In this document: positions 3,841-49,333 of the stretch, in pieces
Numbering within the stretch: position 1 is the stretch's first letter
How the letters are laid out: every line of letters starts with the position of its first letter
Virus record (IMG/VR): IMGVR_UViG_3300021511_000005
Coordinates: 32,001-96,000 of that record
DNA from: a virus
Reading direction: 5' to 3' (one strand)
Length of the DNA: 64,000 nucleotides
Notes under the pieces: generated by a model
Told to the model about the DNA's origin: nothing
Database searches by the model: none
Seen by the model: the letters and a program-made list of their open reading frames with translations, nothing else
Translations under genes and position numbers: made by a program

Positions 3841-3863
3841 CCCTTCGGGGCGGAGGAGGCGCA

Positions 3864-33046: not shown

Positions 33047-33373
33047 ATGCGCTGGTCAGGGTTGATTGTCGCGGTGGTGGCGCTGGTCCTGGCCTTCGTG
33101 GTGGCCGTTCTGGGGTCCTGCACGGCCCCCAATCCATCGCTTCAGGACTGGGAGGCCTGGGACGTCTACTGCTATCCGGACAGCTGTGTGGCGGTCTGGC
33201 GGGCTCAGGACGGCGGTTTGGGCGTGGACCGGCTTCTGCTGTGCGATGAGACCGGGTGCTACTGCATGGGCGGGGGGAGCCTGCGGACGCGCTGCTGCGA
33301 CCGGCAGCCCTTCACCATGGAGGCCATGGAGTCCGTCTACCTCGGTGGGTGCTGCGCTACATTAGGCCCTTGA
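33047..33373 (+). CDS. Cys-rich putative lipoprotein
   Basis: Signal peptide ending in lipobox-like LGSC. Confidence 0.5.
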   Translation: MRWSGLIVAVVALVLAFVVAVLGSCTAPNPSLQDWEAWDVYCYPDSCVAVWRAQDGGLGVDRLLLCDETGCYCMGGGSLRTRCCDRQPFTMEAMESVYLGGCCATLGP

Positions 33374-33428
33374 CTTACTCCGCACTGCGGTCACCATCCT
33401 ATTGTCTTCGGACAACAAGGAGGCTCAC
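33367..33428 (+). promoter_or_regulatory. repeated promoter/operator/stem-loop/RBS cassette, copy 1
   Basis: CCCTTGACTTACTCCGCACTGCGGTCACCAT...TTGTC-TTCG-GACAA...GGAGGCTC. Confidence 0.85.
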
Positions 33429-34310
33429 ATGGCGACCAAGCAGCTCTCTCTTCTTCCCAAGTTGGCCCTGGCGGCTGCGATGTCTAGCGAGTTGAACAAG
33501 GCCAAGCGGGACGAGACCATTCCCGACCTGCAGAGCTACGATATCATTCTGGTCAACACCAGCGCGGGCAAGGACAGCCAGGCGATGCTGGACCTGGTGG
33601 TGGAGCACGCCAAGGCGGCCGGCGTCCTGGACCGGGTAATCACGGTCCACGCGGACCTGGGTCGGATGGAGTGGGCGGGGACTGGCGAGCTGGCCCGCGA
33701 GCAGGCTGAGCACTACGGGCTCCGTCTCGAGGTCGTGAAGCGTCCCCAGGGCGATTTGCTGACCCAGGTGGAGGACCGGGGTATGTGGCCGGGCCATACC
33801 ACGCGCTACTGCACCAGCGACCAGAAGCGGGGTCAGGTCTACCGCGCGATGACCGCCTTGGTCCGCGAGCTGGGTCTGAAGCGCCGGGCGCGGATCCTCA
33901 ACTGCCTGGGCCTCCGCGCGGAAGAGAGTCCTAACCGTGCCAAGCTCGAGCCTCTGAAGGCGGACAAGAAGGCCAGCAACAAGACTAAGCGTGAGGTGGA
34001 CACCTGGCTGCCCATTCACGACTGGACGGTGGAGCAGGTCTGGGCACGTATCAAGCAGAGCGGCGTCCGCCACCACCGGGCCTACGATTTGGGGATGCCC
34101 CGGCTCAGCTGCGTGTTCTGTATCTTCGCGCCCAAGGCGGCCCTGGTGCTCGCCGGCAAGCACAATCAGGAGCTGTTGGACGAGTGTGCGGGGATCGAGA
34201 AGCGGATTGGCCACACCTTCCGCCAGGATCTGACGCTGGCGGAGGTCAAGGAAGCGGTGGAGGCCGGCGAGGGCGGGGCCGTCGAGGACATCGACAGCTG
34301 GTGCTGCTAG
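33429..34310 (+). CDS. PAPS-reductase-family (PP-loop, Fe-S) protein
   Basis: PP-loop SAGKDS, 'HADLG..EW', 'RYCTS..K', 'GLRAEES..RA', 'RLSCVFC'. Confidence 0.85.
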   Translation: MATKQLSLLPKLALAAAMSSELNKAKRDETIPDLQSYDIILVNTSAGKDSQAMLDLVVEHAKAAGVLDRVITVHADLGRMEWAGTGELAREQAEHYGLRLEVVKRPQGDLLTQVEDRGMWPGHTTRYCTSDQKRGQVYRAMTALVRELGLKRRARILNCLGLRAEESPNRAKLEPLKADKKASNKTKREVDTWLPIHDWTVEQVWARIKQSGVRHHRAYDLGMPRLSCVFCIFAPKAALVLAGKHNQELLDECAGIEKRIGHTFRQDLTLAEVKEAVEAGEGGAVEDIDSWCC

Positions 34311-34322
34311 GAAGCGATTAGA

Positions 34323-34388
34323 CCCTTGACATGCTCCGCGCTGGGGTCAGCATATAGGGGTCCTCGGACACAACTCACGGAGGCTCAC
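34323..34388 (+). promoter_or_regulatory. repeated cassette, copy 2
   Basis: CCCTTGACATGCTCCGCGCTGGGGTCAGCAT...GTC-CTCG-GAC...GGAGGCTC. Confidence 0.85.
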
Positions 34389-35348
34389 ATGACGACTCAG
34401 ACCTTGTTCGACTTTGCCCGCCCCAGCCGGCCCACCAGCACCTTCACCGATAGTGACCAGCTGACGGTCGTGGACCTGTGTTGCGGCGCCGGGATGGCCT
34501 CCTTGGGCTTCAAGGCGGCCGGCGGCTACGACATCCTGGGCGGCGTGGACATCTGGGACGACGCGGTGGAGGCCTTCTGTCTCAACCACGGCAATGACTA
34601 CGACTTCTTCCAGGACGCGGGCTGGCTGGGCGTCGAGGGCGCAGCGGCTGGCCGTCAGGAGCATTCCGACGGTTGGACGGTGGACGTGGTCTTGACCGGT
34701 CCGCCCTGCCAGGACGACAGCCTGGCCAACCACGCCGCGGACAAGGGTCGTGGCGCCATCAAGGCTCCGGCGCTGGCCGCGGCGCGGGCGATGGGGGCCA
34801 CCTGGATCATCATGGAGATGGTCACGAGCAAGTACGCTGACTGGTGCCGCAGCCAGGGTGCCCGTCAGATCCTGAAACTCCAGGACTGCAAGCTGGGCGG
34901 CTTCACCATGCGGACCCGCTGGTTCGCCGTCTGGGGTCCCTGGGACCTGGTCATCACGGAAGAGCAGGGACGCGGCTGGGGTGAGGCTCTGGGTGTGGAC
35001 GACCCCGACGCCCGTCTGGCGACCGAGAGTAACAGCAAGGCCAAGCGTTGGCAGCGGGCCAAGGCTCCCCACGAGGCCGCGGATGCCTGCGTGGGCGGCG
35101 ACCGGCGCCACGTCATCCGCTTGGGTAACGGCGAGGAGATCCGGTTGGGACCCCAGGACGAGGCCGCGTTGGCCGGTTTCCCCAACTTGGAGCTGCAGCG
35201 GTCCGAGCACATGTGCAACGGGGAGCGTGAGTGGACGTGGACTCAGGGCGCCCAGAACGAGCGGGACGCCAACACCATGGTCGGCAACGGCTGGCCCATG
35301 AGCTTCGGGCGCGCCATCGGGCGGGCCATCACAAGGAGGAGCCGATGA
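34389..35348 (+). CDS. C5-cytosine DNA methyltransferase (divergent)
   Basis: Motif I DLCCGAG, motif IV GPPCQ, motif VI EMV (usually ENV), motif VIII RTR, motif X VGNG. Confidence 0.8.
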   Translation: MTTQTLFDFARPSRPTSTFTDSDQLTVVDLCCGAGMASLGFKAAGGYDILGGVDIWDDAVEAFCLNHGNDYDFFQDAGWLGVEGAAAGRQEHSDGWTVDVVLTGPPCQDDSLANHAADKGRGAIKAPALAAARAMGATWIIMEMVTSKYADWCRSQGARQILKLQDCKLGGFTMRTRWFAVWGPWDLVITEEQGRGWGEALGVDDPDARLATESNSKAKRWQRAKAPHEAADACVGGDRRHVIRLGNGEEIRLGPQDEAALAGFPNLELQRSEHMCNGEREWTWTQGAQNERDANTMVGNGWPMSFGRAIGRAITRRSR

Positions 35349-35518
35349 CCGAGAGGGAGAAGAAGCTTCAATCGATTAGGGCCGTGGCGCAGAATCTTCG
35401 AGGTGTGGCGTCGTCGGAAGAGACAACCGACGAGTACGCCATTTGGCTTCGACGTCAGGCCGCGGTCTTGGAGTCCTCGGTTCGATTTCTGGCCTCACAG
35501 CGCGAAACGAGGGAGTAG
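35345..35518 (+). CDS. hypothetical protein
   Basis: SD AAGGAGG; ATGA overlap. Confidence 0.5.
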   Translation: MTEREKKLQSIRAVAQNLRGVASSEETTDEYAIWLRRQAAVLESSVRFLASQRETRE

Positions 35519-35854
35519 ATGGCCGGCAAGGATAGCCACGGGGCAAGCGCGGCCCGGCGCGCCAAGGCGGACGCCAAGGACAAAGCCCGGCGCTTGAAGG
35601 CGCGCGGGACCTGGACGCCGCGGAAGCCGGAACAGTTGGAGCTGCCGCTGGACCGGATCGCGCTGGAGGAGGGCGTGATCTACCATCCGTGCGAGACCGG
35701 GATGGAGCCCTGCGAGGCTTGTACCGAGTGGGCCAAGACCGCGGAGCGCGACGAGTGGGGGTACTTCATAGGTCCCAGTCCCTGCGACCTGGTTCGGCGC
35801 CGGCGGCTGGAGGCTTTTACTGCGGAACACAAGACCCGAGGAATCACACTATGA
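35519..35854 (+). CDS. hypothetical protein
   Basis: SD GGGAG; contains QLELPL. Confidence 0.55.
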   Translation: MAGKDSHGASAARRAKADAKDKARRLKARGTWTPRKPEQLELPLDRIALEEGVIYHPCETGMEPCEACTEWAKTAERDEWGYFIGPSPCDLVRRRRLEAFTAEHKTRGITL

Positions 35855-36171
35855 CTGACGAACAGATAGAAGCCCGAGCTTGGGCGTTGATCAACGAGGG
35901 GCCGCTGTTTCTGGCGAAGCAGATCGTCCGGATGGATGAGGCCCTGGTGGGTCTGATTGAGCGTGTGGACCGGCTCGAAGAGAATCAGGTTGTCCTGGAT
36001 GTGGATGACATCGAGGGCCGCCTGGGAGCGGTTGAGGCGTCCTCCGAGCGATTCGAGGATCTGCAGCTCCTGGCCTTCACCGAGACCACCGCGGACCAGT
36101 TGGAGAGCCTGGAGGGTCGCCTGGATCGCTTGGAGGAGCGGGTTCCAGACCCGGAGCTGCGGACACCATGA
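35851..36171 (+). CDS. acidic coiled-coil protein
   Basis: ATGA-coupled; RVDRLEE/RLDRLEE heptads. Confidence 0.55.
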   Translation: MTDEQIEARAWALINEGPLFLAKQIVRMDEALVGLIERVDRLEENQVVLDVDDIEGRLGAVEASSERFEDLQLLAFTETTADQLESLEGRLDRLEERVPDPELRTP

Positions 36172-36914
36172 CCGCGTTCGCGAGGGGCTCCGATCTGATT
36201 GCCAAGTCTCTGGACGTGCCCGGGGTTCGGGATGCCCGGGTCTATGAGTCTGAGCCTGGGAAGGTGGATTTGGTGGTCTGGACGTATCCCGAGTATGTCT
36301 ACCCTGGCCGTGATTCGGAAGTGATCCTGGACGAAGTCCGCAGGCAAGTATCGGGGATGATACCGATGGGAGTCTTGATCAAGGTGATCAAGGGGGAGGA
36401 CATCCCGATCCAGCTCAAGAGGGCGATGATTGGCCTCCAGGGCAACGCGGCGGTGGCTATGCCTATCCTCGATTGGGTTACTGCAGATGACTTCGCTGCG
36501 GGCCTCCTGGAGTGTGAGGACCAGGTCTTCGGGAGGAGCGGGAACTGCAATTGTCAGCTGTCATGGTTCTGGTGCGCGGCCCGCTGCGCCCAAGGATCTC
36601 CACGGGCCCGGCGCTGGCTGGGGGTGGATCTGGAGCGGTCACCGGAGAGCTACTGGCAGGATCGCCACGTCTGTCAGGCGCTGAAGAGTCCCGCGATAGA
36701 GGATATCTTTGTTCATGATATCTTTCTGGAGGCCGCTGGTTACGCACCCATCCTGAAGGTTCTCCGGATGGCCTACGCCGGCGAGGGGCTGATCCTGGAT
36801 CGGGGAGTGAGCGGGGAATGGTGGGAGCTGGTCGGACTCCGCCACCAGGCCCAGCGTCGTGTTATCCTGGAGGCCGTGTGGGGCGGTGAGGAAGACGAGT
36901 CGGACTCCCCGTGA
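36168..36914 (+). CDS. hypothetical protein, N-terminus resembling a baseplate-J-type domain
   Basis: 'SLDVPGVRDARV..PGKVDLVV...ILDEVR......PMGVLIKV'. Confidence 0.5.
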   Translation: MTAFARGSDLIAKSLDVPGVRDARVYESEPGKVDLVVWTYPEYVYPGRDSEVILDEVRRQVSGMIPMGVLIKVIKGEDIPIQLKRAMIGLQGNAAVAMPILDWVTADDFAAGLLECEDQVFGRSGNCNCQLSWFWCAARCAQGSPRARRWLGVDLERSPESYWQDRHVCQALKSPAIEDIFVHDIFLEAAGYAPILKVLRMAYAGEGLILDRGVSGEWWELVGLRHQAQRRVILEAVWGGEEDESDSP

Positions 36915-36916
36915 CC

Positions 36917-36980
36917 CCCTTGACATACTCCGCATAGCGGTCAACATACAGGGGTCCTCGAGACAACTCCGGAGGCTCCG
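36917..36980 (+). promoter_or_regulatory. repeated cassette, copy 3
   Basis: CCCTTGACATACTCCGCATAGCGGTCAACAT...GTC-CTCGA-GAC...GGAGGCTC. Confidence 0.85.
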
Positions 36981-38075
36981 ATGACCCAGACAGCTCTGAA
37001 CGTAGACCGGATTGTGACCCTCAACTGCGGCCTGGGGCGTGATTCCATCGCGATGACGGGGCTGCTGGAAGAGGGCGAGCTGGTGGTGGCGGAGCGGGTT
37101 TGGTGTTGCCGGGATTGTGGAGCTGAGATCCCCATGGTGGAGGAGCTAGCCCCGATCTGTGATTGTACCGACCCCGACGGTTGGTGTGTTCCCGCCATGA
37201 TCCAGTTGACCACCAAGATCGGCCGCCAGGACGTGGACTACGTGGTCTTTTCGGATGTTGGTCACGAGTGGGAGCATACCTACAAGCTGATCCCGACCAT
37301 CCGCGAGAAGTGCGCGGCGATGGGCGTCCGCTTCTTCGTACTGGCCAAGGGCAACGGTCGGAGCTACCCCGCGAAGCCCTCCACCTGGGCCGAGGTTGAG
37401 GCCAAGGCCGCCGCGGGCGGTTATCACGTTAGCAACAAGGGTCAGGCCCTCCCGGCCCTCATGGATGAGATGTTGTCCCGGTCCACGGTGGTCAACTTCC
37501 GCGGACAATGCACGGACAAGCACAAGATCTCCCCGATGCGCCGGCTCATCGAGGATGTGGCCCGGATCCGCTTCGGCGTTCGTGACAACCGCCGCTGGGG
37601 TCACGAGGTCCGCAAGGGTCAGCGCCGTCCCCATCTGGCAATGGTGGGTATCGCCGCGGATGAGACTCCCCGCATCAACAAGGCCGCCCAGGCTGCGGGT
37701 GTGAGCTACGTGGACGAGACCTATCCGCTGGTCACCATGGGGATCGCCAAGACGGACGAGCAGCCTATCCTGGAGCGTCACGGTCTGGGGCACGTCCGGA
37801 AGTCTGGCTGCTACCTTTGCCCCTTCCAGCCGGCGAGCTGGTACTGGGCTTTGAGCGTGACCGATGAGGTCGCCTACCAGATGGTGGTGAGCTACGAAGC
37901 TCAGGCCCTCCAGAACAATCCCAACATGCACGCCACGGCTGCCAAGAAGACCATCCCCGAGATGGTGAAGACTTGGCGAGCTGCCAACCCGAAGGCCACC
38001 GTGGGCGCTGTTCTGGCCAAGACTTACGAGATGTGCCCCGCCGCGGCTCGAACGGCCCAGCGGGTGGCGGCTTGA
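36981..38075 (+). CDS. second PAPS-reductase-like (PP-loop) protein, different subfamily
   Basis: 'CGLGRDS', 'FSDVGHE', 'QCTDKHKI', 'GIAADE..R', 'YPL', 'KSGCYLCPF'. Confidence 0.75.
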   Translation: MTQTALNVDRIVTLNCGLGRDSIAMTGLLEEGELVVAERVWCCRDCGAEIPMVEELAPICDCTDPDGWCVPAMIQLTTKIGRQDVDYVVFSDVGHEWEHTYKLIPTIREKCAAMGVRFFVLAKGNGRSYPAKPSTWAEVEAKAAAGGYHVSNKGQALPALMDEMLSRSTVVNFRGQCTDKHKISPMRRLIEDVARIRFGVRDNRRWGHEVRKGQRRPHLAMVGIAADETPRINKAAQAAGVSYVDETYPLVTMGIAKTDEQPILERHGLGHVRKSGCYLCPFQPASWYWALSVTDEVAYQMVVSYEAQALQNNPNMHATAAKKTIPEMVKTWRAANPKATVGAVLAKTYEMCPAAARTAQRVAA

Positions 38076-38134
38076 CATATTCCGCAGTGCGGTCAATATC
38101 TAGAGGTCCTCGCGACACTGACCAGGAGGCTCTG
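38071..38134 (+). promoter_or_regulatory. repeated cassette, copy 4
   Basis: CTTGACATATTCCGCAGTGCGGTCAATAT...GTC-CTCGC-GAC...GGAGGCTC. Confidence 0.85.
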
Positions 38135-38476
38135 ATGGCTCGATTGACCCAACCCCCCAAGAACCAGGCCTACGCGCAAATCACTGAGGCCATCGGTACA
38201 CGCGGCCGGTGGAACCTGTTGGGCTACGCTCGCGTGTCTCTGCTCAGTCCAACTGATCGGGAGGAGATTACGGTTCGTGTTCAGGCGAGCGCTTGCGAGG
38301 TCCCGGTGGGCCACAAGCGGCAACTCAGGCGATGCGACCTGTTCATTACGCCGGAGGAGATCGAGTGGCTCGAGCGGCAGATCGCCTATACCCAGAGCCA
38401 TGATGGGAAGGCCCCGCATCCGGGCGAGCGACCGGATTGGCCCAAGGCCGGGGACCAGCTCGGGCTGGGCGTGTGA
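38135..38476 (+). CDS. hypothetical protein ending in QLGLGV
   Basis: Starts at the cassette RBS. Confidence 0.65.
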   Translation: MARLTQPPKNQAYAQITEAIGTRGRWNLLGYARVSLLSPTDREEITVRVQASACEVPVGHKRQLRRCDLFITPEEIEWLERQIAYTQSHDGKAPHPGERPDWPKAGDQLGLGV

Positions 38477-38533
38477 CAATCGGCAGGGGCGCGGAATAGG
38501 ATCAACAGGGGCTTTGGCCCCAGGGAGGCACCG

Positions 38534-38800
38534 ATGGCGGGATCACCCAACCTGAAGGTCTACGCAGGCCGCGAGTATGTGGCGAGCTGCAAGCATATCG
38601 AGGACGCGGTGGTGATTGCGGCCGTCCGCGGCGAGGGCACCACCATCCGCTACGGGCACGGCAAGGCTGCGATCCTGTGGACGGAGGGGGCGGAGGGCCA
38701 GTCCGCTAGCGAGAGTTACGACCACGCGACGGCCGTGGTGGTCTCGCGGATGGAGGCCCACTTCGCGCTGCTGGCGCGCAGGCGGAAGGCCCGCGGCTGA
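38534..38800 (+). CDS. hypothetical phage protein
   Basis: SD GGAGG; 'KVY...EYVASCK' pattern. Confidence 0.65.
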   Translation: MAGSPNLKVYAGREYVASCKHIEDAVVIAAVRGEGTTIRYGHGKAAILWTEGAEGQSASESYDHATAVVVSRMEAHFALLARRRKARG

Positions 38801-39132
38801 TGTCCAACCCGGACCGTAACCGGATTGAGCTGCCTGGGGTAATTCTTCAACTGGGCAAGCCACGGTTGACAGCCCGGGGACGGGTCATGGTGATCCCGGC
38901 GCTGCTCTACCCGGAGCGGCCGGTTAACTTCATCAACACGACGATCACACTCGGAGGCGGAGATGCCCCTGTTGGACGACAAGGACCGGGCGACGTTGGC
39001 CTGGCTGAAGGAGGCGAAGATGACGAGGGACGGAAGGTACAACACGACGCCGGCGGTGGACCGCAAGGCGGCCAAGCTCCGGGCGGAGGGGTTGAGCTTC
39101 CGCAAGATCGCGGAGGCTCTGGGGGTCAGTGA
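38800..39132 (+). CDS. hypothetical protein
   Basis: TGATG-coupled; tail overlaps the next gene. Confidence 0.4.
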   Translation: MSNPDRNRIELPGVILQLGKPRLTARGRVMVIPALLYPERPVNFINTTITLGGGDAPVGRQGPGDVGLAEGGEDDEGRKVQHDAGGGPQGGQAPGGGVELPQDRGGSGGQ

Positions 39133-39385
39133 CAAGACGGCCAAGCAGGCCGCGGAGCGTGGCGCTAACGGTCGTCAGCTGGACGCCGAGAAGGCCAGGG
39201 GCCAGGAACTGCGGAAGCTCCTGAAGGACCGCTGGCGGAGGCTGACGGACCCGGAGATGGAGGCAATGGAGCGGCGGATGGCCGGCGATACCCAGGACGC
39301 GATCGGCGCCAAGCTGGGCATCAGCAAGCAGCGGGTGGCCCAGCTCCAGGCCCAGGCGGAGAAGAAGCTTCGGGAGGAACGATGA
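38963..39385 (+). CDS. double helix-turn-helix DNA-binding protein
   Basis: 'GLSFRKIAEALGVSDKTA' and sigma-r4-like 'TQDAIGAKLGISKQRVAQL'. Confidence 0.75.
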   Translation: MPLLDDKDRATLAWLKEAKMTRDGRYNTTPAVDRKAAKLRAEGLSFRKIAEALGVSDKTAKQAAERGANGRQLDAEKARGQELRKLLKDRWRRLTDPEMEAMERRMAGDTQDAIGAKLGISKQRVAQLQAQAEKKLREER

Positions 39386-39753
39386 CGACGGCCGAGCGAC
39401 TCAGGAAGATCTTGACGAGGCACCGTTACAGGTCCTTTGACTACTCCAACGACTTCAAGATCAAGGCGACAGACGCCCTGCTGGACAAGCTGGTGGCGGA
39501 GCTGCTGGAGGTCGTGGAGGATCAGGAGAAGAAGGTTCACGCGGCATACGCGCCTGACGTGGCCGCTTCCTTCGACAAGGTCAATCAGAGTGATTTCGTT
39601 ATCGGGCTGGTCCGCAAGGTCCGCAAATGTAATGCCTGCGGTTGTTCTAAGTGGGAACCCTACGTTCCGCTGGGGCGGTTCGGGGCGGACGGGCTCGTCT
39701 GCGCGGGCTGTGGTAACGCTATCGAGAATAGCACCATGATGGAGGAGCCCTGA
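39382..39753 (+). CDS. hypothetical protein with C-terminal zinc ribbon
   Basis: CNACG...CAGCG. Confidence 0.55.
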   Translation: MTTAERLRKILTRHRYRSFDYSNDFKIKATDALLDKLVAELLEVVEDQEKKVHAAYAPDVAASFDKVNQSDFVIGLVRKVRKCNACGCSKWEPYVPLGRFGADGLVCAGCGNAIENSTMMEEP

Positions 39754-40910
39754 TGGGCCAAGATAGACTTACCGAGGGCGGCCGGAGCATTGTGTGGAAG
39801 GCCGTGATGGACAGTTTGAACGCTCACCGGCGCCAGGGGATGGTCTTCAAGACCAAGCTGTTCTTGAAGTTCGAGCGCTGGGGCGTGGGGGTGGAGGATC
39901 TGTGGGAGCCCGGGATGCCCGACAAGCCTGGGATTCCGGAGGAGACGATCCAGGCCTTCGTTGCGGACATCGCCGCGGACGTCTGCAAGCGTGTGGAGGA
40001 GGCGCTGGACCGCATCGACCCTAGGCCAGGGCCCAACCAGGAGATCATCTGCCAGAGCTGCGGTCAGGAGTTCGTGACCACGGTGGGTGGAGCTTGCCCG
40101 AGCTGCGGACACAAGTGGGACGGGACAACGCCGGCGACAAAGGACCTGTCCGCGGCAGACCGGGCGAAGCGGGCCTGGGGCGAAGTCCAGATTGGCGGAC
40201 CTGGTGACGTGGTGGAGCCGCCGGCGATAACCGACGCCATAGAGCGCTGGAAGGCGGATCCGGAGCCCAGCATGGACGAGACGTGGACGGAGGCCGAGAG
40301 GATCTCGTGGACGGAGGCCGAGAGGATCTCCTGGGAAGCAGTGGAGCGGTTGGAGGGGAGCGGCCACACCCCCCATTGCGCGCGGAGGATGATCTGGGGA
40401 GATGGGGAGTGCGAATGCCAGCTGCCGAAGGCGAAGGCCTCCGCGATCACCTGCACCTGCCACCTGATGGACCCGGGGAAGCTCTGTGCCGTCTGCTTGG
40501 AGGACATGAATCGCCAGCTCCAGGAGACCTACCAGCCGGCCTTCCCGGACACGCAAAGTCGGATCGACGAGCTGCGGGGAGCGCTCGAGGCCGGCGCACG
40601 GTTGGCGGAGGAAGAGCCCCTTCCGGTGATGGACGACCCGATGGGTCCCGTATCGCAGGCCCCGCGACACGGGACACGACCAGGCCGGCCCCCGCGGAGC
40701 TACAAGGAGATGGCCCGAGATGAGCGAGAGGCTGCAGAGAGAGACGCTAGGGTTCTGCATGAATTGTGGGGATCCGCTGGTCCCAAGGGACCTAGAGCTG
40801 GCGGTGGTGCAGCTCCGGAAGACGATCCTCAATCAGCTGAGGAGCGTGGGCTGGACGCCGGGCTGGAGGACCGCGGACAACCTGGCCCGGACGATCCTGT
40901 CGGGGATTGA
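39753..40910 (+). CDS. mosaic Cys-rich hypothetical protein
   Basis: Several CxxC motifs; internal repeat. Confidence 0.55.
   Translation: MGQDRLTEGGRSIVWKAVMDSLNAHRRQGMVFKTKLFLKFERWGVGVEDLWEPGMPDKPGIPEETIQAFVADIAADVCKRVEEALDRIDPRPGPNQEIICQSCGQEFVTTVGGACPSCGHKWDGTTPATKDLSAADRAKRAWGEVQIGGPGDVVEPPAITDAIERWKADPEPSMDETWTEAERISWTEAERISWEAVERLEGSGHTPHCARRMIWGDGECECQLPKAKASAITCTCHLMDPGKLCAVCLEDMNRQLQETYQPAFPDTQSRIDELRGALEAGARLAEEEPLPVMDDPMGPVSQAPRHGTRPGRPPRSYKEMARDEREAAERDARVLHELWGSAGPKGPRAGGGAAPEDDPQSAEERGLDAGLEDRGQPGPDDPVGD
40282..40329 (+). repeat. 24-nt exact tandem duplication (WTEAERIS x2)
   Basis: Read directly from the sequence. Confidence 0.9.
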
Positions 40911-40953
40911 GGATTACGGGCGAGAGGAGCCTCCACCGAATTCTGACCCTTGA
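40720..40953 (+). CDS. hypothetical protein
   Basis: SD AAGGAG; ends in the cassette TGA. Confidence 0.45.
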   Translation: MSERLQRETLGFCMNCGDPLVPRDLELAVVQLRKTILNQLRSVGWTPGWRTADNLARTILSGIEDYGREEPPPNSDP

Positions 40954-41012
40954 CATGCTCCGCGGCGCGGTCATCATCTCGGTTGTCTTCGGACGCTACC
41001 TTGGAGGCTCGA
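40947..41012 (+). promoter_or_regulatory. repeated cassette, copy 5
   Basis: CCCTTGACATGCTCCGCGGCGCGGTCATCAT...GTC-TTCG-GAC...GGAGGCTC. Confidence 0.85.
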
Positions 41013-41309
41013 ATGTTCAGCAGCTACGACAACTGGAAGACCACGGACCCCCGCGACTCTGAGCGGGAGGTTGGGATGGTGGATTGCCCCGACTGTCAAG
41101 GCGAGGGCCATGGTTGCGACGAGGACGGCCCCTGGTACTGCCCGACCTGCAGCGGCGAGGGTTGGCTGTGGGAGGAAGTCCTGGAGGTCATGGAAGCGGA
41201 GGAGGAGCTGGACGCGGGTTGTCCGCGCTGTGGTGGCCTTCTCTGCAACTGCGTCAACATCGAGGCCAGTATAGAAGCCATGATGGCCGGAAAGGAAGAA
41301 GCTGCCTGA
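41013..41309 (+). CDS. small protein with DnaJ-type CxxCxGxG zinc motifs
   Basis: 'YDNWKTTDP', CPDCQGEG, CPTCSGEG. Confidence 0.65.
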   Translation: MFSSYDNWKTTDPRDSEREVGMVDCPDCQGEGHGCDEDGPWYCPTCSGEGWLWEEVLEVMEAEEELDAGCPRCGGLLCNCVNIEASIEAMMAGKEEAA

Positions 41310-41680
41310 TGGACCGCACCGATCCCCGACACGTCGCCCACGAGCTGACCCCCCTGGAGCGTGTTCTCCAGACCATGTCCTACCACACCGGCCTGGTGAT
41401 GACCGAGCCGGCCCCCAGCACCTTGAAGATGGGGCTGTCCCACGAAGACGTCTTGGTCTTGGTGGAGATCACCATCCAGCCCAGCTCCTGCGGCCCGCAG
41501 GAGGACAGCCCCCTGGGTCCCAACGTCATGGACCAGTGTTGCATCAAGGTCGAGGGGGAGGCGAAGGGCTCCTGGGTTGGGAACCGCTGTGGTGCCCGTC
41601 AGGCCCTGGCAGCGCTATACGCTCCGGTCATCGCGGCCGCAGCCGCGATGGAGTCCGAGACCGAGAGGAATGCGGCTTGA
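41309..41680 (+). CDS. hypothetical protein
   Basis: TGATG-coupled ORF. Confidence 0.55.
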   Translation: MDRTDPRHVAHELTPLERVLQTMSYHTGLVMTEPAPSTLKMGLSHEDVLVLVEITIQPSSCGPQEDSPLGPNVMDQCCIKVEGEAKGSWVGNRCGARQALAALYAPVIAAAAAMESETERNAA

Positions 41681-41859
41681 TGGATCGGGATCAGTGGAAG
41701 AGGCGCGTGGTGTCCAAGCGGGAGGCCAGGATCGCCAAGTTGGTCCGTGCTCATGGTTTCACGCGCGTATCGGATCGGAAGGTCCGCTGTCCTCATTGCG
41801 GCGCGGAGCTGACCTATAATCTGGTGCGACGTGTCCATTTGACCGGGAGGTGTGTCTGA
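41680..41859 (+). CDS. small C2H-C zinc-finger-like protein
   Basis: CPHCG...VHLTGRC. Confidence 0.5.
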   Translation: MDRDQWKRRVVSKREARIAKLVRAHGFTRVSDRKVRCPHCGAELTYNLVRRVHLTGRCV

Positions 41860-42608
41860 TGGCCAAGCCGAAACAATACCGCTGGGTCTGTCCTCAGTGT
41901 GGGGCCGGCAAGCTGGCGCCGAGCAGGCCGCGGAAGGACGACGTCCGCCGCTACTGCCTACCCTGCAGCGAGCGGACGGGGCGGTTGGTGGAGAGACTGT
42001 CTCCGGCGCTGGAGCGCCAGCGTCGGGAGAAGGAGGAGCGCCGGCGGAGCAGGGACAAGCGCAAGCGGGCGGCCAAGACCCGGGCGAGGGCTCGCAATCG
42101 CGAAGCCCGGGCGGAGTGGATCGTGGAGCGGGAGATCGCTTTGGGCTTTGCCCAGGACGGCGGGAAAGACTCCATCCACGGTTGGTTCCGCAGGCTCCGG
42201 AAGCTGAAGGCCTGGGGCTGCAAGATGAGCCACTGCAGCCTCCGGGTCCGTTACAGCGACACGGACCGTCACGCGCATCCCTGGACCAGCGGACACGCCT
42301 GGCTGGAGGAGGGCGAGATCGTGATCACGGCCGCCAAGCCCAGGGCGGGTTACCCGACGTTGCGGCAGAAGGCGGAGGTGATCCAGACTCTGCTCCACGA
42401 GCTGGCCCATCCCGCAGCCTTTGGGCGTTTCGGACACGAGGGGACTAACCACGGCCCGGAGTTCAAGCGGACACTGCTCGAGGCCGCGGAGGAGCTGACC
42501 GGTCGGGTAGCGGATGTGACCGTAGAGCACGCGACTTATGACGTGGACCAAGAGGTTGTGGATATGCTTCACCTGTGGCTGATGGAAGAGGACGCCGATG
42601 GCTGCTGA
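41859..42608 (+). CDS. SprT-like zinc metalloprotease with N-terminal zinc ribbon
   Basis: TLLHELAH...HGPEFK. Confidence 0.65.
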   Translation: MAKPKQYRWVCPQCGAGKLAPSRPRKDDVRRYCLPCSERTGRLVERLSPALERQRREKEERRRSRDKRKRAAKTRARARNREARAEWIVEREIALGFAQDGGKDSIHGWFRRLRKLKAWGCKMSHCSLRVRYSDTDRHAHPWTSGHAWLEEGEIVITAAKPRAGYPTLRQKAEVIQTLLHELAHPAAFGRFGHEGTNHGPEFKRTLLEAAEELTGRVADVTVEHATYDVDQEVVDMLHLWLMEEDADGC

Positions 42609-43245
42609 CCTAACACGGGGACAGGTGATGGACGCCCTGGAGCAGCTCATATGGGGTGGGACCGCTTCGTGGCTGGGGGAGGACCTGGCCCACGCGATGG
42701 CCATCTTTGAGGGCACCGGGCGGATCAGCGAGCGCTTGATGGAGGTGGTCCAAGATCACGTCCAGGTCCGAGAGGTTGAGCGCTTGGAGCAACAGGTGGC
42801 TCAGACTGCCCTTCGGGAGACCGCATTGGAGGCTATGAAGAAGAAGGGGCGGAAGGTTCACTGGCGGATCGCGGGTCAGCGCAAGACGGCTTGCGGGTTG
42901 GTCCTCAATCCTCAGCGCGAGCCCTACAACGCGCCGGCGGCCGATTACGATCCGGAGAAGGTCACCTGCAAGAGTTGCCTGGGATCCAGTGGGCTCCGGG
43001 AGCTGCGGTCCAAGTGGCCGCCGGTTCGTGTGTTGTCTGCGAGCTTCAGTTTGGAGGGGCCACCGGAGGGCAGGACTCGGGTCTTCAGTTATCGGCGCCG
43101 GATGACCCCGGAGGAAGTGGCGGTGGTGACGACACTTCTGGAGGAGCGAGTCCCCAGTCTACTGGAGGAGCCGGATCCCAAGATTGTCACAGCCTATCGC
43201 GCGGCCAAGGCGGCCGCGGAGAGGAGGGACGCCGATGGCAGCTAA
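42598..43245 (+). CDS. hypothetical protein
   Basis: 'VH...TACG...VTCKSC' small zinc motif. Confidence 0.55.
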   Translation: MAADLTRGQVMDALEQLIWGGTASWLGEDLAHAMAIFEGTGRISERLMEVVQDHVQVREVERLEQQVAQTALRETALEAMKKKGRKVHWRIAGQRKTACGLVLNPQREPYNAPAADYDPEKVTCKSCLGSSGLRELRSKWPPVRVLSASFSLEGPPEGRTRVFSYRRRMTPEEVAVVTTLLEERVPSLLEEPDPKIVTAYRAAKAAAERRDADGS

Positions 43246-43426
43246 GGTCTACATGTTGGAGCTGGAGAACGGGACCTATGTCTACCTGTGTCCCCAGCAC
43301 CTGAAGGATTGGCGGGTGGCTGGCGGCAAGGAGAAGGCCAAGGTGGCCACCGGCCGCGACTGCGATCACTGCGCGGCTGGCGGTGGGCCGGGCAGCTCCT
43401 GGAGCGTGCGCGATGATGACGCCTAA
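43235..43426 (+). CDS. small Cys/His protein
   Basis: LCPQH...CDHC; SD GGAGAGGAGG. Confidence 0.45.
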   Translation: MAAKVYMLELENGTYVYLCPQHLKDWRVAGGKEKAKVATGRDCDHCAAGGGPGSSWSVRDDDA

Positions 43427-44066
43427 GCGGTTGCTCCGGAACCTGCGGGACGCCAAGGCGGCCCGCAACAAGTTGGTCAAGGTCTGGCGCCACAAGGTCC
43501 AGCTCCCCGAGGGGGCGAAGGTCCAGTGTCGGGGTAAGGGTTGCGTGGGCTGCTGTTACCAATTCGTCCTGGCGGGCATCTGGGAGGGCGCGTTGATCGC
43601 TCACTATCTGCTGCACACGGAGGGCTCCCACGAGCTGATTCAGGAGTGCGCGCGGGCCGGGGACGAGCAGCTCGAGCGTGTTGGGCCCGAGTACACCCCG
43701 GACGCGATCAACGCGGTCACGGGGCCCTGGTTGGACGAGAGACACCCCTGCGTCTTCCTGAAGGATGGGGTCTGCGAGATTTATGCTCTGCGGCCTATCG
43801 CGTGCTCGAGCTACGTTGTCATCAGCGATCCGGAGGTCTGCGCCGCGGGGAGCGGGGCGGAGGTTTGCGCCGGCGACAACGCGAGCTGTTTGGCCTGGAG
43901 GCTTGAGGTGGACCGGCGGCTCGTTTCGGAGCTGCTGAGCATCAAGCGGGACGACGTGGTGGTGATGCCCTTGCCGCTGCCCCGGGCGGTGACTCTGGGC
44001 TCTCAGCTCCTGCTGGAGGGGCCAGAGGCGCTTCGTGGGATTGTCCTGGGCGAATCGAACCCTTGA
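43413..44066 (+). CDS. YkgJ/CxxCxxCC cysteine-cluster protein
   Basis: 'CRGKGCVGCC', 'CVFL.DGVCEIYALRPIAC'. Confidence 0.8.
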   Translation: MMTPKRLLRNLRDAKAARNKLVKVWRHKVQLPEGAKVQCRGKGCVGCCYQFVLAGIWEGALIAHYLLHTEGSHELIQECARAGDEQLERVGPEYTPDAINAVTGPWLDERHPCVFLKDGVCEIYALRPIACSSYVVISDPEVCAAGSGAEVCAGDNASCLAWRLEVDRRLVSELLSIKRDDVVVMPLPLPRAVTLGSQLLLEGPEALRGIVLGESNP

Positions 44067-44125
44067 CATAGTCCGCATCGTGGTCACCATATGCTCGTCT
44101 TCGGACGCAACCTCAGGAGGCTCCA
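44060..44125 (+). promoter_or_regulatory. repeated cassette, copy 6
   Basis: CCCTTGACATAGTCCGCATCGTGGTCACCAT...CGTC-TTCG-GACG...GGAGGCTC. Confidence 0.85.
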
Positions 44126-44434
44126 ATGACTAAAGTGGTGTTTGAGCGGATGGAGACGGATCCCCAGGACGGGACCACGACTTGGGAGATCCGGTTGGAG
44201 ACCGGGGGCGTGACCGAGGTGGTGGGCTCCATCCACAAGGATACGGTGTGGTGCGGCGATGGCTACCGGGCGGATACCTATCATGTCGAGGTGGACCGGG
44301 ATCAGTGGGACGATTCGCGGGAGAAGACGTTCCAGGTCTGCAATATTTGGAGCCGCGGTCGTGGAACGTCGGCGCGGACTGCGATGGCCGAGGCGAAGGC
44401 CTGGGCACGCGAACAGCTCAAGGAGGGCCTCTAG
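44126..44434 (+). CDS. hypothetical protein
   Basis: Starts at the cassette RBS. Confidence 0.65.
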   Translation: MTKVVFERMETDPQDGTTTWEIRLETGGVTEVVGSIHKDTVWCGDGYRADTYHVEVDRDQWDDSREKTFQVCNIWSRGRGTSARTAMAEAKAWAREQLKEGL

Positions 44435-44676
44435 TGGCTCGCAACTCAGACGGCACGTTTGCCAGCAAGCAGCACCTGGATCGCTTCGACCATCAGCGGC
44501 AGCTCCAGATGAAGCTCCGCGAGGTCTTGACCACCGCCGCGGACAAGTTGGATCCCCAGGACGCGCTGTGGGGTGTCAAGGTGATGCGGGAGCGGCCGGA
44601 CTGGGCCGTCCCAGTGATCGAGCGTATCGAGGCCGAGCTGGCCGTTGACCGTCTAACTGGAGGCTGCAATGGTTGA
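44434..44676 (+). CDS. hypothetical protein
   Basis: TAGTG-coupled ORF. Confidence 0.5.
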   Translation: MARNSDGTFASKQHLDRFDHQRQLQMKLREVLTTAADKLDPQDALWGVKVMRERPDWAVPVIERIEAELAVDRLTGGCNG

Positions 44677-45022
44677 TCTGTTCCTGGCCCTTCTCTCCAT
44701 CCCCTTCGTTCTCCGCCCGCGGGAGGACGACTGTTGCCGGTGGGACGTCTACGCAGGCCCCATGCTCGTGGCGATCGTGGAGTACGTCCACAGCGCCAAG
44801 GGGGAGTGGATGTGGAGTCCTCCGTGTTCCGGGTTCCGTTATCCCTGTCCCTGGGACTCTTCCCGGGGGACCTGGGCGGACTCCTATCCGGACCGCCACG
44901 AGGAGGCGCTGATGGCGGAGATCCGGCGCTTCATCGAGATCCACAACGTCGAGCATCACCAGGCCTACCTGCTTGCCATGATGACCGGGGAGCGGCGCTT
45001 GCTCGAGCTGGAGGGAGAGTAG
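44669..45022 (+). CDS. hypothetical protein
   Basis: SD GGAGG. Confidence 0.55.
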   Translation: MVDLFLALLSIPFVLRPREDDCCRWDVYAGPMLVAIVEYVHSAKGEWMWSPPCSGFRYPCPWDSSRGTWADSYPDRHEEALMAEIRRFIEIHNVEHHQAYLLAMMTGERRLLELEGE

Positions 45023-45024
45023 CC

Positions 45025-45276
45025 ATGGACAAACGATCGGCCCCTACTCTGTACTTCAGCTCCAAGACCGGCAAGTGGGGCACCACGCCGATCGAGGGTG
45101 CTCCCACCTGGCAGCACAGCTCCATGATGGTCTATGAGGCCTGGTTGCGGAGCCAGGACCGTCGGCGGCGCTACGCGGCCCAGAGAGCCGCGGACCGTCG
45201 GCGGACCAAGGCCCAGTCCAAGTACATCGTCGAGCGGTGCCTGATGGCACTCCTGGCTCACTGGGAGCGGTCATGA
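45025..45276 (+). CDS. hypothetical protein
   Basis: SD GGAG. Confidence 0.5.
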   Translation: MDKRSAPTLYFSSKTGKWGTTPIEGAPTWQHSSMMVYEAWLRSQDRRRRYAAQRAADRRRTKAQSKYIVERCLMALLAHWERS

Positions 45277-45563
45277 GGCGGCGCGCGGGTGAGGACCAAG
45301 AGGATACACGTCGGCGGTTGACCTGGCGCATTGAACAGCTGGCGGAGGTGGGCTGGATCCCGGTGGGCTGGGATGATGTCCGCGGGAAGTTGGCGCCTAA
45401 GTCTCCGGCGGAGAGCCATAGGGTCCGCTGTCCCCATTGTGAAGTGACCTTTGACCACAGCAGCGGGACGGCCCGGGAGAAGCACTTGATCAAGAAACAT
45501 GGTTACAGTCGCCTGGACGGTTTCTACCGGGCTCATGGGATGGACTGCTTCGAAGAGCCTTGA
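45273..45563 (+). CDS. C2H2-like zinc-finger protein
   Basis: CPHC...F...REKHLIKKH. Confidence 0.55.
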   Translation: MRRRAGEDQEDTRRRLTWRIEQLAEVGWIPVGWDDVRGKLAPKSPAESHRVRCPHCEVTFDHSSGTAREKHLIKKHGYSRLDGFYRAHGMDCFEEP

Positions 45564-45628
45564 CATACTCCGCAGCGGGGTCATCATATCGGTTGTCAGG
45601 GCTTCGGCCCACAACCCAGGAGGCTCCG
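45558..45628 (+). promoter_or_regulatory. repeated cassette, copy 7
   Basis: CCTTGACATACTCCGCAGCGGGGTCATCAT...GGTTGT-CA-GGGC-TTCG-GCCC-ACAACC...GGAGGCTC. Confidence 0.85.
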
Positions 45629-45859
45629 ATGACCAAGACCGTTACGAAGGAACGCAAGGATGGCCGGGACCTGGCCAAGCTTCTCCGCTCCAATTTCGGC
45701 TCCTACGAGCTGGTTCAGAATGTCCTGACCGCACAGTGCGCCGGCTGTCGCGAGATGGCTCAGGGGATGTTGGACGAGCTGACTGTGGACGAGCTGGACG
45801 AATTGGACGCCCAGATCGAGCTGATTCAGACTCAGATGGCTCAGCAGGCGCAGGAGTAG
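45629..45859 (+). CDS. hypothetical protein
   Basis: Starts at the cassette RBS. Confidence 0.6.
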   Translation: MTKTVTKERKDGRDLAKLLRSNFGSYELVQNVLTAQCAGCREMAQGMLDELTVDELDELDAQIELIQTQMAQQAQE

Positions 45860-45862
45860 GCG

Positions 45863-46672
45863 ATGCACCAGCTCCGCCTTGCCATCGAGCCCCTGGACGA
45901 CACCCGGCCCATTCCGACCTGCCAGGATGGAACCGGGCCCATCTGCCCCTGGTGCGGGGAGGAGCGTTTCCTGGATGTCCTGGAGTACTGGCCGGAGGAG
46001 CGGGCGTGGATGTTCGATACCTGCTGTGAGGGCTCCCATCAGGATGCCTGTGAGCACGCCGCCCAGGACCCCCGGGGCTTCGGTCGTTGGTTTGAGGGCG
46101 TGACTGGTTGCTACGTCCGTCAGGGTTACCAGAGTACGGTGGAGCCCGACTTTCTCCGCCTGGACTTCGGTTTGACCGTGGGGCCGGTGAAGCAGGCGGA
46201 CGCCAAGGCCTTCATCAGCGAGCATCACCGCCACAACAACGCACCGGCCGGCTGGAAGTGGGGTTTGGGCTGCTACAACGGCCACGAGCTAATCGCAGTC
46301 CTGTGGGTCGGTCGTCCGGTGGCGCGGAAGCTGGACCACACCAAGATCGTCGAGGTCAACCGCTTGTGTGTGAATCCCGACCTGGACCCGGAGCTGGTGT
46401 GGAACGCTTGCTCGAAGCTCTACGCTGAGGCGGCCCGGGAGGCCAAGACTCGGCGCTACGACAGGGCCATCACCTACACCCTGGCGAGCGAGTCCGGCGG
46501 GACCCTGGTGGCTGCGGGCTGGACCCCGACGCACCGCACCGAGGGAGGAAGCTGGGATCGCCCGAGCCGAGCCCGCACCGACAAGGCCCCGACTTGCCAG
46601 AAGATCCGTTGGGAGAAGGGTTGCAACAAGCGCGCCCGTAAGGACATCGCCAAGCGGGCCATCACCCTGTAA
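45863..46672 (+). CDS. XF1762/Mom-like GNAT-fold putative DNA-modification protein
   Basis: 'AKAFISEHHRH', 'VGRPVAR.LD', 'EVNRLC', 'NACSKLY', 'ITYTL.SESG..L.AAGW'. Confidence 0.75.
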   Translation: MHQLRLAIEPLDDTRPIPTCQDGTGPICPWCGEERFLDVLEYWPEERAWMFDTCCEGSHQDACEHAAQDPRGFGRWFEGVTGCYVRQGYQSTVEPDFLRLDFGLTVGPVKQADAKAFISEHHRHNNAPAGWKWGLGCYNGHELIAVLWVGRPVARKLDHTKIVEVNRLCVNPDLDPELVWNACSKLYAEAAREAKTRRYDRAITYTLASESGGTLVAAGWTPTHRTEGGSWDRPSRARTDKAPTCQKIRWEKGCNKRARKDIAKRAITL

Positions 46673-47982: not shown

Positions 47983-48520
47983 CGACAGCACGCCGTCTCA
48001 TCCAATGCTGCAGGTCTTCAAGGACATCGGCTCCATCAAGACCGGGATTGCGAACCTGGAAGGCGGGCAGGCGGAGCTGGACGGCAAGGTTTCCGGGCTC
48101 CACCACACCATCGCGGGCCTGGTCACATCGGATGAGTGTGAAGCCCACAGGGACGCGCTGGAGGCGTCCATGGAGATGGCGGAGGGTCCGACAGCTCAGC
48201 TCCCCCCAGGCGGACCGGGGCTGCTGGAGCGCGCCGGCAAGCATGCCAAGGCCATCACGGCGATCCTGGTCCTGTTGGGGATGGTCGGAGGGATCCTGTT
48301 GGTCATGTCCCGGTTGGTGGGCTCTGTGGAGCGGACGCTGGCTGCGGACCGTCAGGCTCAGAAGGCCGTCCAGGCCCAGGTCCTCCAGGAGTTGAAGAAG
48401 CCTCAGGAGCCCGTGGTGGTTCGGGAGAAGGTTTATGTCTACCCGGACGCGGGGGCTCGCAGGCGGCGCCGGCGGCCTGTCAGGCGGCGTCGGGTTCCGC
48501 GGACCAAGCGGACCCCCTAG
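47975..48520 (+). CDS. single-TM coiled-coil protein (holin/spanin-like candidate)
   Basis: Central TM AITAILVLLGMVGGILLVM; Arg-rich C-terminus; lysis context. Confidence 0.45.
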   Translation: MSDDSTPSHPMLQVFKDIGSIKTGIANLEGGQAELDGKVSGLHHTIAGLVTSDECEAHRDALEASMEMAEGPTAQLPPGGPGLLERAGKHAKAITAILVLLGMVGGILLVMSRLVGSVERTLAADRQAQKAVQAQVLQELKKPQEPVVVREKVYVYPDAGARRRRRRPVRRRRVPRTKRTP

Positions 48521-48565
48521 ACAGACCTACACCGCGGAAGATACTCTACTGCCCAGGAGGGTCAC

Positions 48566-48874
48566 ATGCCTGTTTACGCTTACACCTGCCAAGCCTGCGG
48601 GGAGACAACGGATCATTGTGTCCCCTACGATAGCCGGTTGAGGTCGCTGGATTGTCCGCTTTGCGAAGCTCCCGAGGCGGCCAAGTACTCCTGTGTGGAC
48701 GGTCGGCCGCCGATGTCCACCATGAACGCAGTTCGGCCGCGGAAGGACGATGGCCGGATGATCTTCGATGAGCGGGAAGTCCACGCCGATTCAGAGCGGG
48801 GCAAGGATTGGCGGGATGAGGGGACCAACGGTAACCCGGGCGGCGCCGGCGAGAAGCTTTATTTCCACGATTAG
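48566..48874 (+). CDS. FmdB-family zinc-ribbon protein
   Basis: MPVYAYTCQACG...CPLC. Confidence 0.8.
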   Translation: MPVYAYTCQACGETTDHCVPYDSRLRSLDCPLCEAPEAAKYSCVDGRPPMSTMNAVRPRKDDGRMIFDEREVHADSERGKDWRDEGTNGNPGGAGEKLYFHD

Positions 48875-48877
48875 CCG

Positions 48878-49333
48878 ATGACCACCCTGATCATCACGGC
48901 GATCCTGTGGTTGGCGCCTCAGGTGGAGCCGGCGGACGCGAAGCTCTACGCGACTCATATTCAGCGAGAGGCCACCCGCTGGGACCTGGACCCCCTGCTG
49001 GTGCTGGCGGTGATCAAGCGGGAGTCCGGCTTCAACCCCAGGGCCAGGTCCAAGACGTCCGACTATGGCCTGATGCAGGTCCATGTCTCCAAGACGACCT
49101 ACTCCGGCTACCTCCATCATCCGGAACGACTCTACAACCCCAAGCTCAACATCCGTTTGGGGATCCGCCTGATGGCCATCTGGAGGGACTACCACGCCGG
49201 CCGATGTGAGGGTCAGCATCCGTTCTGGGCCCACTTCAAGTACGGCAAACGGATCCCGCGCAAGCGCAAGGGCAAGAAGGTGGACGCTATCTACCGGGAG
49301 CTGGTGGCCAAGTTCCGCAGTTCGGGGGTTTGA
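48878..49333 (+). CDS. lytic transglycosylase (SLT domain)
   Basis: 'LDPLLVLAVIKRESGFNPRA.S..DYGLMQV...LYNPKLNIRLG'. Confidence 0.85.
   Translation: MTTLIITAILWLAPQVEPADAKLYATHIQREATRWDLDPLLVLAVIKRESGFNPRARSKTSDYGLMQVHVSKTTYSGYLHHPERLYNPKLNIRLGIRLMAIWRDYHAGRCEGQHPFWAHFKYGKRIPRKRKGKKVDAIYRELVAKFRSSGV

Follow-up and report, generated by a model that had tools for sequence, protein, structure and literature searches.

A seven-copy repeat of promoter-like boxes, leader hairpin and ribosome-binding site in an accessory gene block of an uncultured phage

Among the regulatory repeats of bacteriophages, the promoter-stem-loop cassettes (PeSLs) of the T4-type phages RB49/phi1, PST and nt-1 are the closest described relatives in design of the element studied here (Arbiol et al. 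2010, PMC2839356; Comeau et al. 2014, PMC4122927). The stem-loops of PeSLs act as terminators, and indels as well as mini-circles have been described whose crossovers fall within the motifs (PMC2839356, PMC4122927). The start-associated sequences (SAS) and extended SAS of Cluster K mycobacteriophages comprise a 13-bp GGGATAGGAGCCC-type motif located 3-7 bp before the start codon (Pope et al. 2011, PMC3203893). Here we describe a repeat of ~70 nt, termed the cassette, that occurs seven times in an accessory gene block of an uncultured phage (IMG/VR virus record IMGVR_UViG_3300021511_000005). The window, that is, the whole stretch analysed, is 64,000 nt long and corresponds to bases 32001-96000 of one contig of 109,478 bp; positions are those of the window unless the genome is named.

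By aligning the copies and surveying the genes around them, we propose that the seven repeats are probably housekeeping-sigma (sigma-70/SigA-type) promoters fused to a shared 25-35-nt leader. The cassettes would mark off seven operon-like units within a 15-kb accessory block: TTGACA and CAnYAT, separated by a 16-nt spacer, would be bound by host RNA polymerase; the transcript would start at, or no more than one base from, a small hairpin of the C(UUCG)G type, followed by a CA-rich linker, a strong Shine-Dalgarno (SD) sequence and ATG; and the spacer block TCCGC, via a common regulator, would switch all seven units together. Observed in this scheme are the repeat with its blocks, the positions of its copies and the genes around them, whereas the start site, the early timing and the functions of hairpin and operator are what we infer from sequence.

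Seven copies and their anatomy

The genome has a GC content of ~64% and its GC skew is positive throughout, so that nearly all genes lie on the + strand. The cassette is present in exactly seven copies, all on the + strand and none elsewhere in the 109,478-bp genome, starting at 33370, 34326, 36920, 38072, 40950, 44063 and 45560 (counted from the -35 box). The repeat is real, and its count is far above chance: a 14-nt core allowing up to 2 mismatches gave eight matches in the window, namely the seven copies and an unrelated 2-mismatch site at 62304, against a mean of 0.72 and a maximum of 4 in 100 dinucleotide shuffles. A repeat search of the window returned the same seven copies as its top family; a fuzzy scan covering both strands of the whole genome matched only them; and a profile built from them (R1) scored them at E 2e-18 to 2e-20 over the 109,478 bp scanned, with no further match at E<=10. 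The seven copies listed by a first-pass annotation, made from the letters alone, were thus all recovered at the coordinates given there, on the + strand. No pair of copies exceeds 83% identity over 47 nt.

Read from an alignment of the seven copies (A2), the invariant blocks are, in order, CTTGAC, T, TCCGC, G, GGTCA, AT, G-C-TCG, GGAGGCTC and ATG, and the columns between them are scrambled across the copies; this combination of sharp blocks and scrambled columns speaks for selection acting on the individual blocks and not for recent common descent. The upstream part runs C-TTGAC(A/T), T, TCCGC, three variable bases, G-n-GGTCA and n-(C/T)-AT, and the downstream part 6-7 variable bases, G-(U)-C-(Y)-UCG, a CA-rich linker that varies between copies but is often ACAAC, and then GGAGGCTC, 2-3 bases and ATG. 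Copy 1 (33366..33431) carries TTGACT at 33370-33375, CACCAT at 33392-33397, a hairpin UUGUC-UUCG-GACAA from 33404, GGAGGCTC at 33419-33426 and ATG at 33429; copy 2 (34322..34391) has TTGACA at 34326, CAGCAT, GUC-CUCG-GAC from 34360, SD at 34379 and ATG at 34389; and copy 3 (36916..36983) has TTGACA at 36920, CAACAT, GUC-CUCGA-GAC from 36954, SD at 36971 and ATG at 36981. In the remaining four copies the TGA of TTGACA is also the stop of the upstream gene: copy 4 (38068..38137; TTGACA 38072, CAATAT, GUC-CUCGC-GAC from 38106, SD 38125, ATG 38135), copy 5 (40946..41015; TTGACA 40950, CATCAT, UGUC-UUCG-GACG from 40984, SD 41003, ATG 41013), copy 6 (44059..44128; TTGACA 44063, CACCAT, CGUC-UUCG-GACG from 44096, SD 44116, ATG 44126) and copy 7 (45556..45631; TTGACA 45560, CATCAT, GGUUGU..GGGC-UUCG-GCCC..ACAACC at 45591-45616, SD 45619, ATG 45629).

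The -35 box is TTGACA in six copies, as the first-pass annotation had it for the whole set, and TTGACT in copy 1. Its -10-like box, annotated as CAnnAT 16 nt further on, is found at that distance in all seven and can be refined to CAnYAT, whose invariant A, A and T correspond to positions 2, 5 and 6 of the -10 hexamer; a G two bases upstream of it may represent a partial extended -10. Sites of sigma-70-like type are few in the genome (14 in 109 kb), and seven of these 14 lie in this block, comprising six cassettes and a diverged site at 38473. Upstream of the -35 box the flank is GC-rich, reading (A/G)CCC or similar.

In the leader, the hairpin conforms in outline to the GTC-(Y)TCG-GAC of the earlier description, with a GUC/GAC stem that reaches 4-5 bp in copies 1, 5 and 6, and a loop that is UUCG in four copies and CUCG in one; copies 3 and 4, however, carry 5-nt loops (CUCGA and CUCGC). 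The extension noted for copy 7 consists of a GGGC/GCCC stem inside a further GGUUGU/ACAACC stem. The gap between CAnYAT and the GTC stem, formerly given as about 6-9 nt, is 6 nt in five copies and 7 nt in copy 5, whereas in copy 7 the outer stem starts 3 nt, and the inner GGGC-UUCG-GCCC stem 11 nt, after the -10-like box. The predicted start (-10 end + 7 nt) coincides with the first G of the hairpin in five of the seven copies and lies one base before it in two. The YUCG loop and its closing C-G pair persist across differing stems (GUC/GAC, with GGGC/GCCC replacing it in copy 7 and GGGGC/GCCCC found at 38473), which points to a feature acting at the RNA level. The leader ends in a strong SD, GGAGG, 5 nt before the ATG; among 21 occurrences of GGAGGCTC in the genome, only the seven cassettes and one diverged site have ATG within 3 nt of it.

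Operon-like units, their cargo and the genome around them

Each cassette fills one intergenic gap of 55-78 nt, the only sizeable one at its operon-like boundary, and within the units the genes overlap or abut on the + strand, as judged from a frame plot of GC at third codon positions (GC3) and from the tiling of open reading frames (ORFs). The units measure 0.96, 2.6, 1.15, 2.9, 3.1, 1.5 and ~2.9 kb. In five of the seven copies the TGA inside TTGACA serves as the stop codon of the upstream ORF, an outcome with a probability of ~0.045 under a simple 1-in-3 frame model. We also observed that in four of the five genes stopping there the conserved CC makes the last codon CCT, a cassette-encoded terminal proline.

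Unit 1 begins with a PAPS-reductase-like gene (33429-34310; PF01507, 2.8e-16), and unit 2, ending at 36914, contains a C5 DNA methyltransferase gene (34389-35348) and four small genes. The first gene of unit 3 (36981-38075; phrog_424, 2.4e-13) encodes a second PAPS-reductase-like protein, only distantly related to the first. Unit 4 ends at 40953; unit 5 ends at 44066 and includes an SprT-like gene (41859-42608); unit 6, ending at 45563, holds five small ORFans; and unit 7, ending at 48520, holds a 76-aa gene, a Mom-like gene (45863-46672) and others, all on the + strand. The unit-leading genes accordingly encode two PAPS-reductase-like proteins, one C5 methyltransferase and four small proteins without known function. 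The Mom-like protein matches phrog_1384 (3.3e-28) and falls just under the cut-off of Pfam Mom (26.6 bits); other unit proteins include the SprT-like protein, a CxxCxxCC protein, several Zn-ribbon proteins and a protein with two helix-turn-helix (HTH) motifs. About 24 of the 33 block genes match no family, and no classical anti-defence family was identified among them. The earlier proposal of anti-defence cargo is supported in part, the two PAPS-reductase-like genes, the C5 methylase and the Mom-like gene being of DNA-modification or counter-defence type and most other genes ORFans, and "counter-defence and ORFan cargo" is a fair description of the block. Because the cassette-led genes are unrelated to one another, and no paralogues were found among the units, we rejected the idea that the repeat is a by-product of gene duplication.

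Two gene arrangements within the units are recorded here as observations in their own right. The 76-aa gene at 45629 lies directly before the Mom-like gene (to 46672), recalling com-mom of phage Mu; its product has one CxxC only and no family match. In the region 39753-40953, the GC3 signal of a 385-aa ORF changes frame near 40600 and homology to a related protein (P0002) ends at 40595; the first frame is nevertheless open to 40910, and another ORF (40630-40953) has its stop at the TGA within cassette 5, which may reflect either a long overlap or a frameshift. Relatives of this ORF are shorter (275-319 aa), and two of them (P0003 and P0004) align only over its first ~90 residues, at 67-72% identity.

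The protein with two HTH motifs (38963..39385, + strand, 140 aa) was described correctly from the start: HTH_23 covers residues 35-63 and a Sigma70_r4 match residues 93-138 (1.6e-10), the C-terminal HTH aligning to region 4.2 of RpoS, so that the C-terminal half resembles sigma region 4. Four related assemblies encode it at 59-76% identity, against only 41% for a neighbouring protein. Its predicted model is of middling quality (pLDDT 72.7, pTM 0.40) and gave no Foldseek match at E<=0.001, the top weak rows being sigma factors, and so adds nothing beyond Pfam. As a common regulator of the cassettes this protein is a candidate, linked to them by proximity alone.

Two diverged sites, missed by the first-pass annotation, keep the cassette design without its spacer blocks. 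The first, in unit 4 (38473..38536, + strand), reads GTGACA, 18 nt, TAGGAT, 5 nt, GGGGC-UUUG-GCCCC, GGGAGG and ATG at 38534. The other, at genome 31920-31990 (window -80 to -10), reads TTGACA, 18 nt, CACCAT, GGC-UUUG-GCC, GGAGGCTCC and ATG; it lies within the last ~25 codons of a superfamily 2 (SF2) helicase ORF, which stops 5 codons past the cassette ATG, and is followed by a very stable leader (-61.6 kcal/mol over ~150 nt) before a gene at window 96. Downstream of it, co-oriented genes encode a DnaB-like helicase, a primase-like protein and a protein resembling sigma factors of the extracytoplasmic function (ECF) type (window 3837-4343, 169 aa), which matches Sigma70_r4_2 (ECF type) alone. 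At the other end of the block, a motif AGACA..CGCGGAAGATACT (48518..48568, + strand; site 48533) belongs to a second class, TGACA..CGCGGAAGGGTA, and stands directly before gene 48566 and the terminase operon, with a transglycosylase-like gene at 48878-49333 and the gene for the terminase itself at 49330-51417. This second class is located at replication and late operon boundaries; a further CGCGGAAGGGTA copy at genome 30386 has an ECF-promoter-like make-up (GGAAG, 17 nt, CGTC). A diverged site before the sigma operon and another motif class at the terminase operon fit a host-promoter-first cascade: the layout suggests that host-type promoters, including that for the phage sigma, would be used first, and a phage-sigma class would then serve replication and late genes. 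The cassettes themselves would fit an early class by their layout. Elsewhere in the window, at 13018-16112, lies a pair of adjacent genes that is conserved in a distant relative, the complete 107-kb record G004; the second gene encodes an SbcC/Rad50-like protein, ~25% identical to exonuclease subunits of SPO1-type Bacillus phages and thus a phage-borne recombination nuclease.

Searches beyond this genome returned no second cassette. Profile R1 had no match in five related viral records including G004; a GTDB genome scan gave none; an IMG/VR scan with an IUPAC pattern gave one match, on a 39%-GC contig without hairpin or SD; and a JGI metagenome scan gave five single-copy chance matches without related genes. 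A terminase search yielded five loci (L002-L006; 48-66% identity), none of them cassette-bearing, and had no match in GTDB genomes. The 385-aa and 364-aa unit proteins led as queries to no useful loci, and P0002 and P0004 had no matches in IMG/VR. In G004 no homologues were detectable for the genes from window ~16 kb to the terminase, the block included. The closest cultured phages share only 25-43% identity, in single proteins, and the terminase is nearest to those of non-T4 phages (~30%). A tRNA search found none, nor was any prophage or host match found.

Weighing the explanations

Several observations weigh against the reading of the cassettes as housekeeping-sigma promoters with a shared leader. 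The first -10 position is an invariant C rather than T, an AT-rich UP element is lacking, and the boxes were compared with the sigma-70-type consensus, from which that of the host may differ. GGTCA can alternatively be read as an ECF-sigma-type -10 element (GTC). The spacer palindrome CCGC-N3-GCGG is perfect in four of the seven copies only, being a G-U variant in one and broken in two. The hairpins are weak, at -1.6 to -3.8 kcal/mol in six copies (-7.8 in copy 7), and minimum-energy folds of the whole leader often favour pairings other than the YUCG hairpin.

As to the operator, the left half of the palindrome is invariant and the imperfect copies show no compensating change. The outer dyad TGAC...GTCA, which the first-pass annotation had paired with this palindrome, occurs in all seven copies, but in alignment A2 its centre is 3 bp off that of the inner palindrome; a single symmetric operator formed by both dyads is therefore not possible and was rejected. 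The annotation's promoter-operator-stem-loop-RBS (ribosome-binding site) unit thus keeps its -35/-10 boxes, leader hairpin, strong SD and ATG, while its operator palindrome is imperfect in three of seven copies. The invariant TCCGC is explained neither by promoter recognition nor by the leader and is the best candidate for the site of a common regulator switching all seven units. Its centre is 10 bp, or one helical turn, from that of GGTCA, on the same helix face, a geometry that would suit a monomer with two HTH units.

A hairpin directly at the 5' end of an mRNA is an arrangement that slows 5'-end-dependent decay. Emory et al. are said to have described, in 1992, such a 5'-terminal stem-loop as an mRNA stabiliser in the E. 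coli ompA leader, and Tuerk et al. reportedly described intercistronic CUUCGG hairpins of T4 in 1988. The position of the cassette hairpin at the predicted +1, with loop and closing pair kept while the stems differ, favours a protective 5'-terminal hairpin of this kind; because six of the seven are weak, we put forward protection against 5'-end-dependent decay as a hypothesis. Termination was also considered for the hairpin and gave no signal above chance: in the 30-50 kb region there are seven predicted terminator-like sites against 8.3 expected, none at a cassette, and the CCGC/GCGG stem of the spacer, 4 bp long, is broken in two of the seven copies.

Instead of the host polymerase alone, a polymerase redirected by a phage-encoded factor (either the ECF-like sigma of 169 aa or the double-HTH protein) might read the cassettes as a middle class, with TCCGC and GGTCA as specificity elements. 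We consider this unlikely, though it accounts for several features. Promoters of ECF type have -10 GTC motifs, and the invariant GGTCA lies ~15-16 nt after TTGAC, where such motifs are found; the phage encodes both a Sigma70_r4_2-matching protein and, in unit 4, a sigma-4-like protein with two HTH motifs; and an invariant C is an unusual first base in the -10 box of a housekeeping sigma. Against it, the -35 is the exact housekeeping consensus TTGACA, unlike the AAC-type -35 of ECF promoters, the invariant A, A and T of CAnYAT fit the key -10 positions, and the TGACA..CGCGGAAGGGTA class is a better candidate for the phage sigma. It is much less probable still that the cassette is an RNA-level element only, such as a processing site, translational operator or SD-masking switch in a long polycistronic transcript, its promoter likeness being incidental. 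GUCYUC can pair with GGAGGC, so that two structures compete in prediction, the small YUCG hairpin and GUCYUC paired with the SD, and minimum-energy folds of several copies sequester the SD. Translation of Mu mom is activated by the Zn-finger protein Com, and the block encodes a Mom-like protein in unit 7 and many small Zn-ribbon or Cys-rich proteins nearby. The predicted SD pairing probability is nevertheless no higher in the cassettes (0.54) than in 87 other genes (0.48; p = 0.44), a result on which we rejected the SD-masking switch; the strongest conservation falls in the DNA blocks TTGAC, TCCGC and GGTCA upstream of the leader; and an Rfam search of the cassette matched no family.

The repeats may also be viewed as PeSL-like portable recombination modules, exchange between copies excising, inserting or swapping the flanked genes while the promoter travels along. 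The same ~70 nt are attached to unrelated genes, and the similarity between copies is mosaic: copy 7 resembles copy 5 from the -10 to the stem and copy 3 (79%) from the SD to codon 6. The block is ORFan-rich and without detectable homologues in G004, the phage encodes an SbcC/Rad50-like nuclease subunit, and PeSLs provide a precedent (PMC2839356, PMC4122927). We nonetheless find this explanation improbable, as the cassette was found in no second genome searched and no copy-bounded indel was seen, and the longest exact runs common to any two copies (8-20 nt, typically ~10) give homologous exchange little to work on. No pair of copies approaches identity, which argues against recent conversion or transposition, and in GC content and trinucleotide usage the seven units all match the genome, so that a foreign composition of the units was dismissed. 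Doubtful to a similar degree is a wider proposal, in which the cassette would be a PeSL-like portable expression unit that arose independently in a high-GC, non-T4 lineage, counter-defence and ORFan genes would be exchanged through recombination between its copies, and the double-HTH protein would read the -35 together with TCCGC/GGTCA and shut the set off.

Significance and relation to described systems

If the seven repeats are housekeeping-sigma promoters with a shared leader, they provide a ready predicted transcription map for an uncultured phage, marking the genes probably first switched on by host polymerase and with them a likely counter-defence and host-takeover set (the two PAPS-reductase-like genes, the C5 methylase, the Mom-like modifier and many small proteins). 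The cassette would likewise be a compact, self-contained expression part, consisting of promoter, leader and ribosome-binding site, for the high-GC host of the phage. Should relatives show gene swaps bounded by the repeat, cassette shuffling of the T4 type would extend to an unrelated lineage.

The analogy with PeSLs, drawn by the first-pass annotation, holds for the composite anatomy and the setting: the cassette combines sigma-70-like -35 and -10 boxes, a stem-loop and an SD, is repeated in intergenic gaps and is concentrated in an ORFan-rich accessory region, and one PeSL subclass also has its stem-loop just downstream of the -10. It fails for the terminator stem-loop as well as for AT-rich features. 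The cassette has no AT-rich tract upstream of the -35; its stem-loops are tiny (3-5 bp, YUCG loop), lie in the leader, lack a U-tract and are not G/C-run terminators, bearing no likeness to the terminator part that defines PeSLs; and its spacer carries the invariant TCCGC. The two have no sequence homology, the phage lineage is unrelated to T4, and no recombination products or indels were observed for the cassette.

Like SAS, the cassette is an asymmetric repeat in one orientation that embeds an SD together with extra conserved bases without rRNA pairing (here GGAGG+CTC), lies a few bases before the ATG of unrelated non-structural genes, sometimes contains the upstream stop, and has an upstream imperfect inverted repeat with the left half better kept. 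By contrast, SAS are 13-bp motifs of the ribosome-binding region without a promoter, whereas the cassette adds -35/-10 boxes as well as a hairpin in its leader; the two are unrelated in sequence, the cassette motif GGAGGCTC standing 2-3 nt before the ATG within a longer promoter-bearing repeat; and the seven cassettes occupy one block, as against ~15-20 SAS over the right arm. With 5'-terminal mRNA stabilisers the cassette has in common a UUCG-type tetraloop hairpin at or within one base of the predicted 5' end and ahead of the SD, differing in its very short stems and in a position relative to the 5' end that is itself predicted. The morons of lambdoid phages have unrelated promoters and their own terminators; the block is similar in holding accessory genes with their own promoter in a co-oriented array, but reuses one conserved cassette seven times, with no terminators seen. 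We conclude that the cassette works like a regulatory repeat of PeSL or SAS type, unrelated to either in sequence, and is a tidy example of a known theme rather than a new principle.

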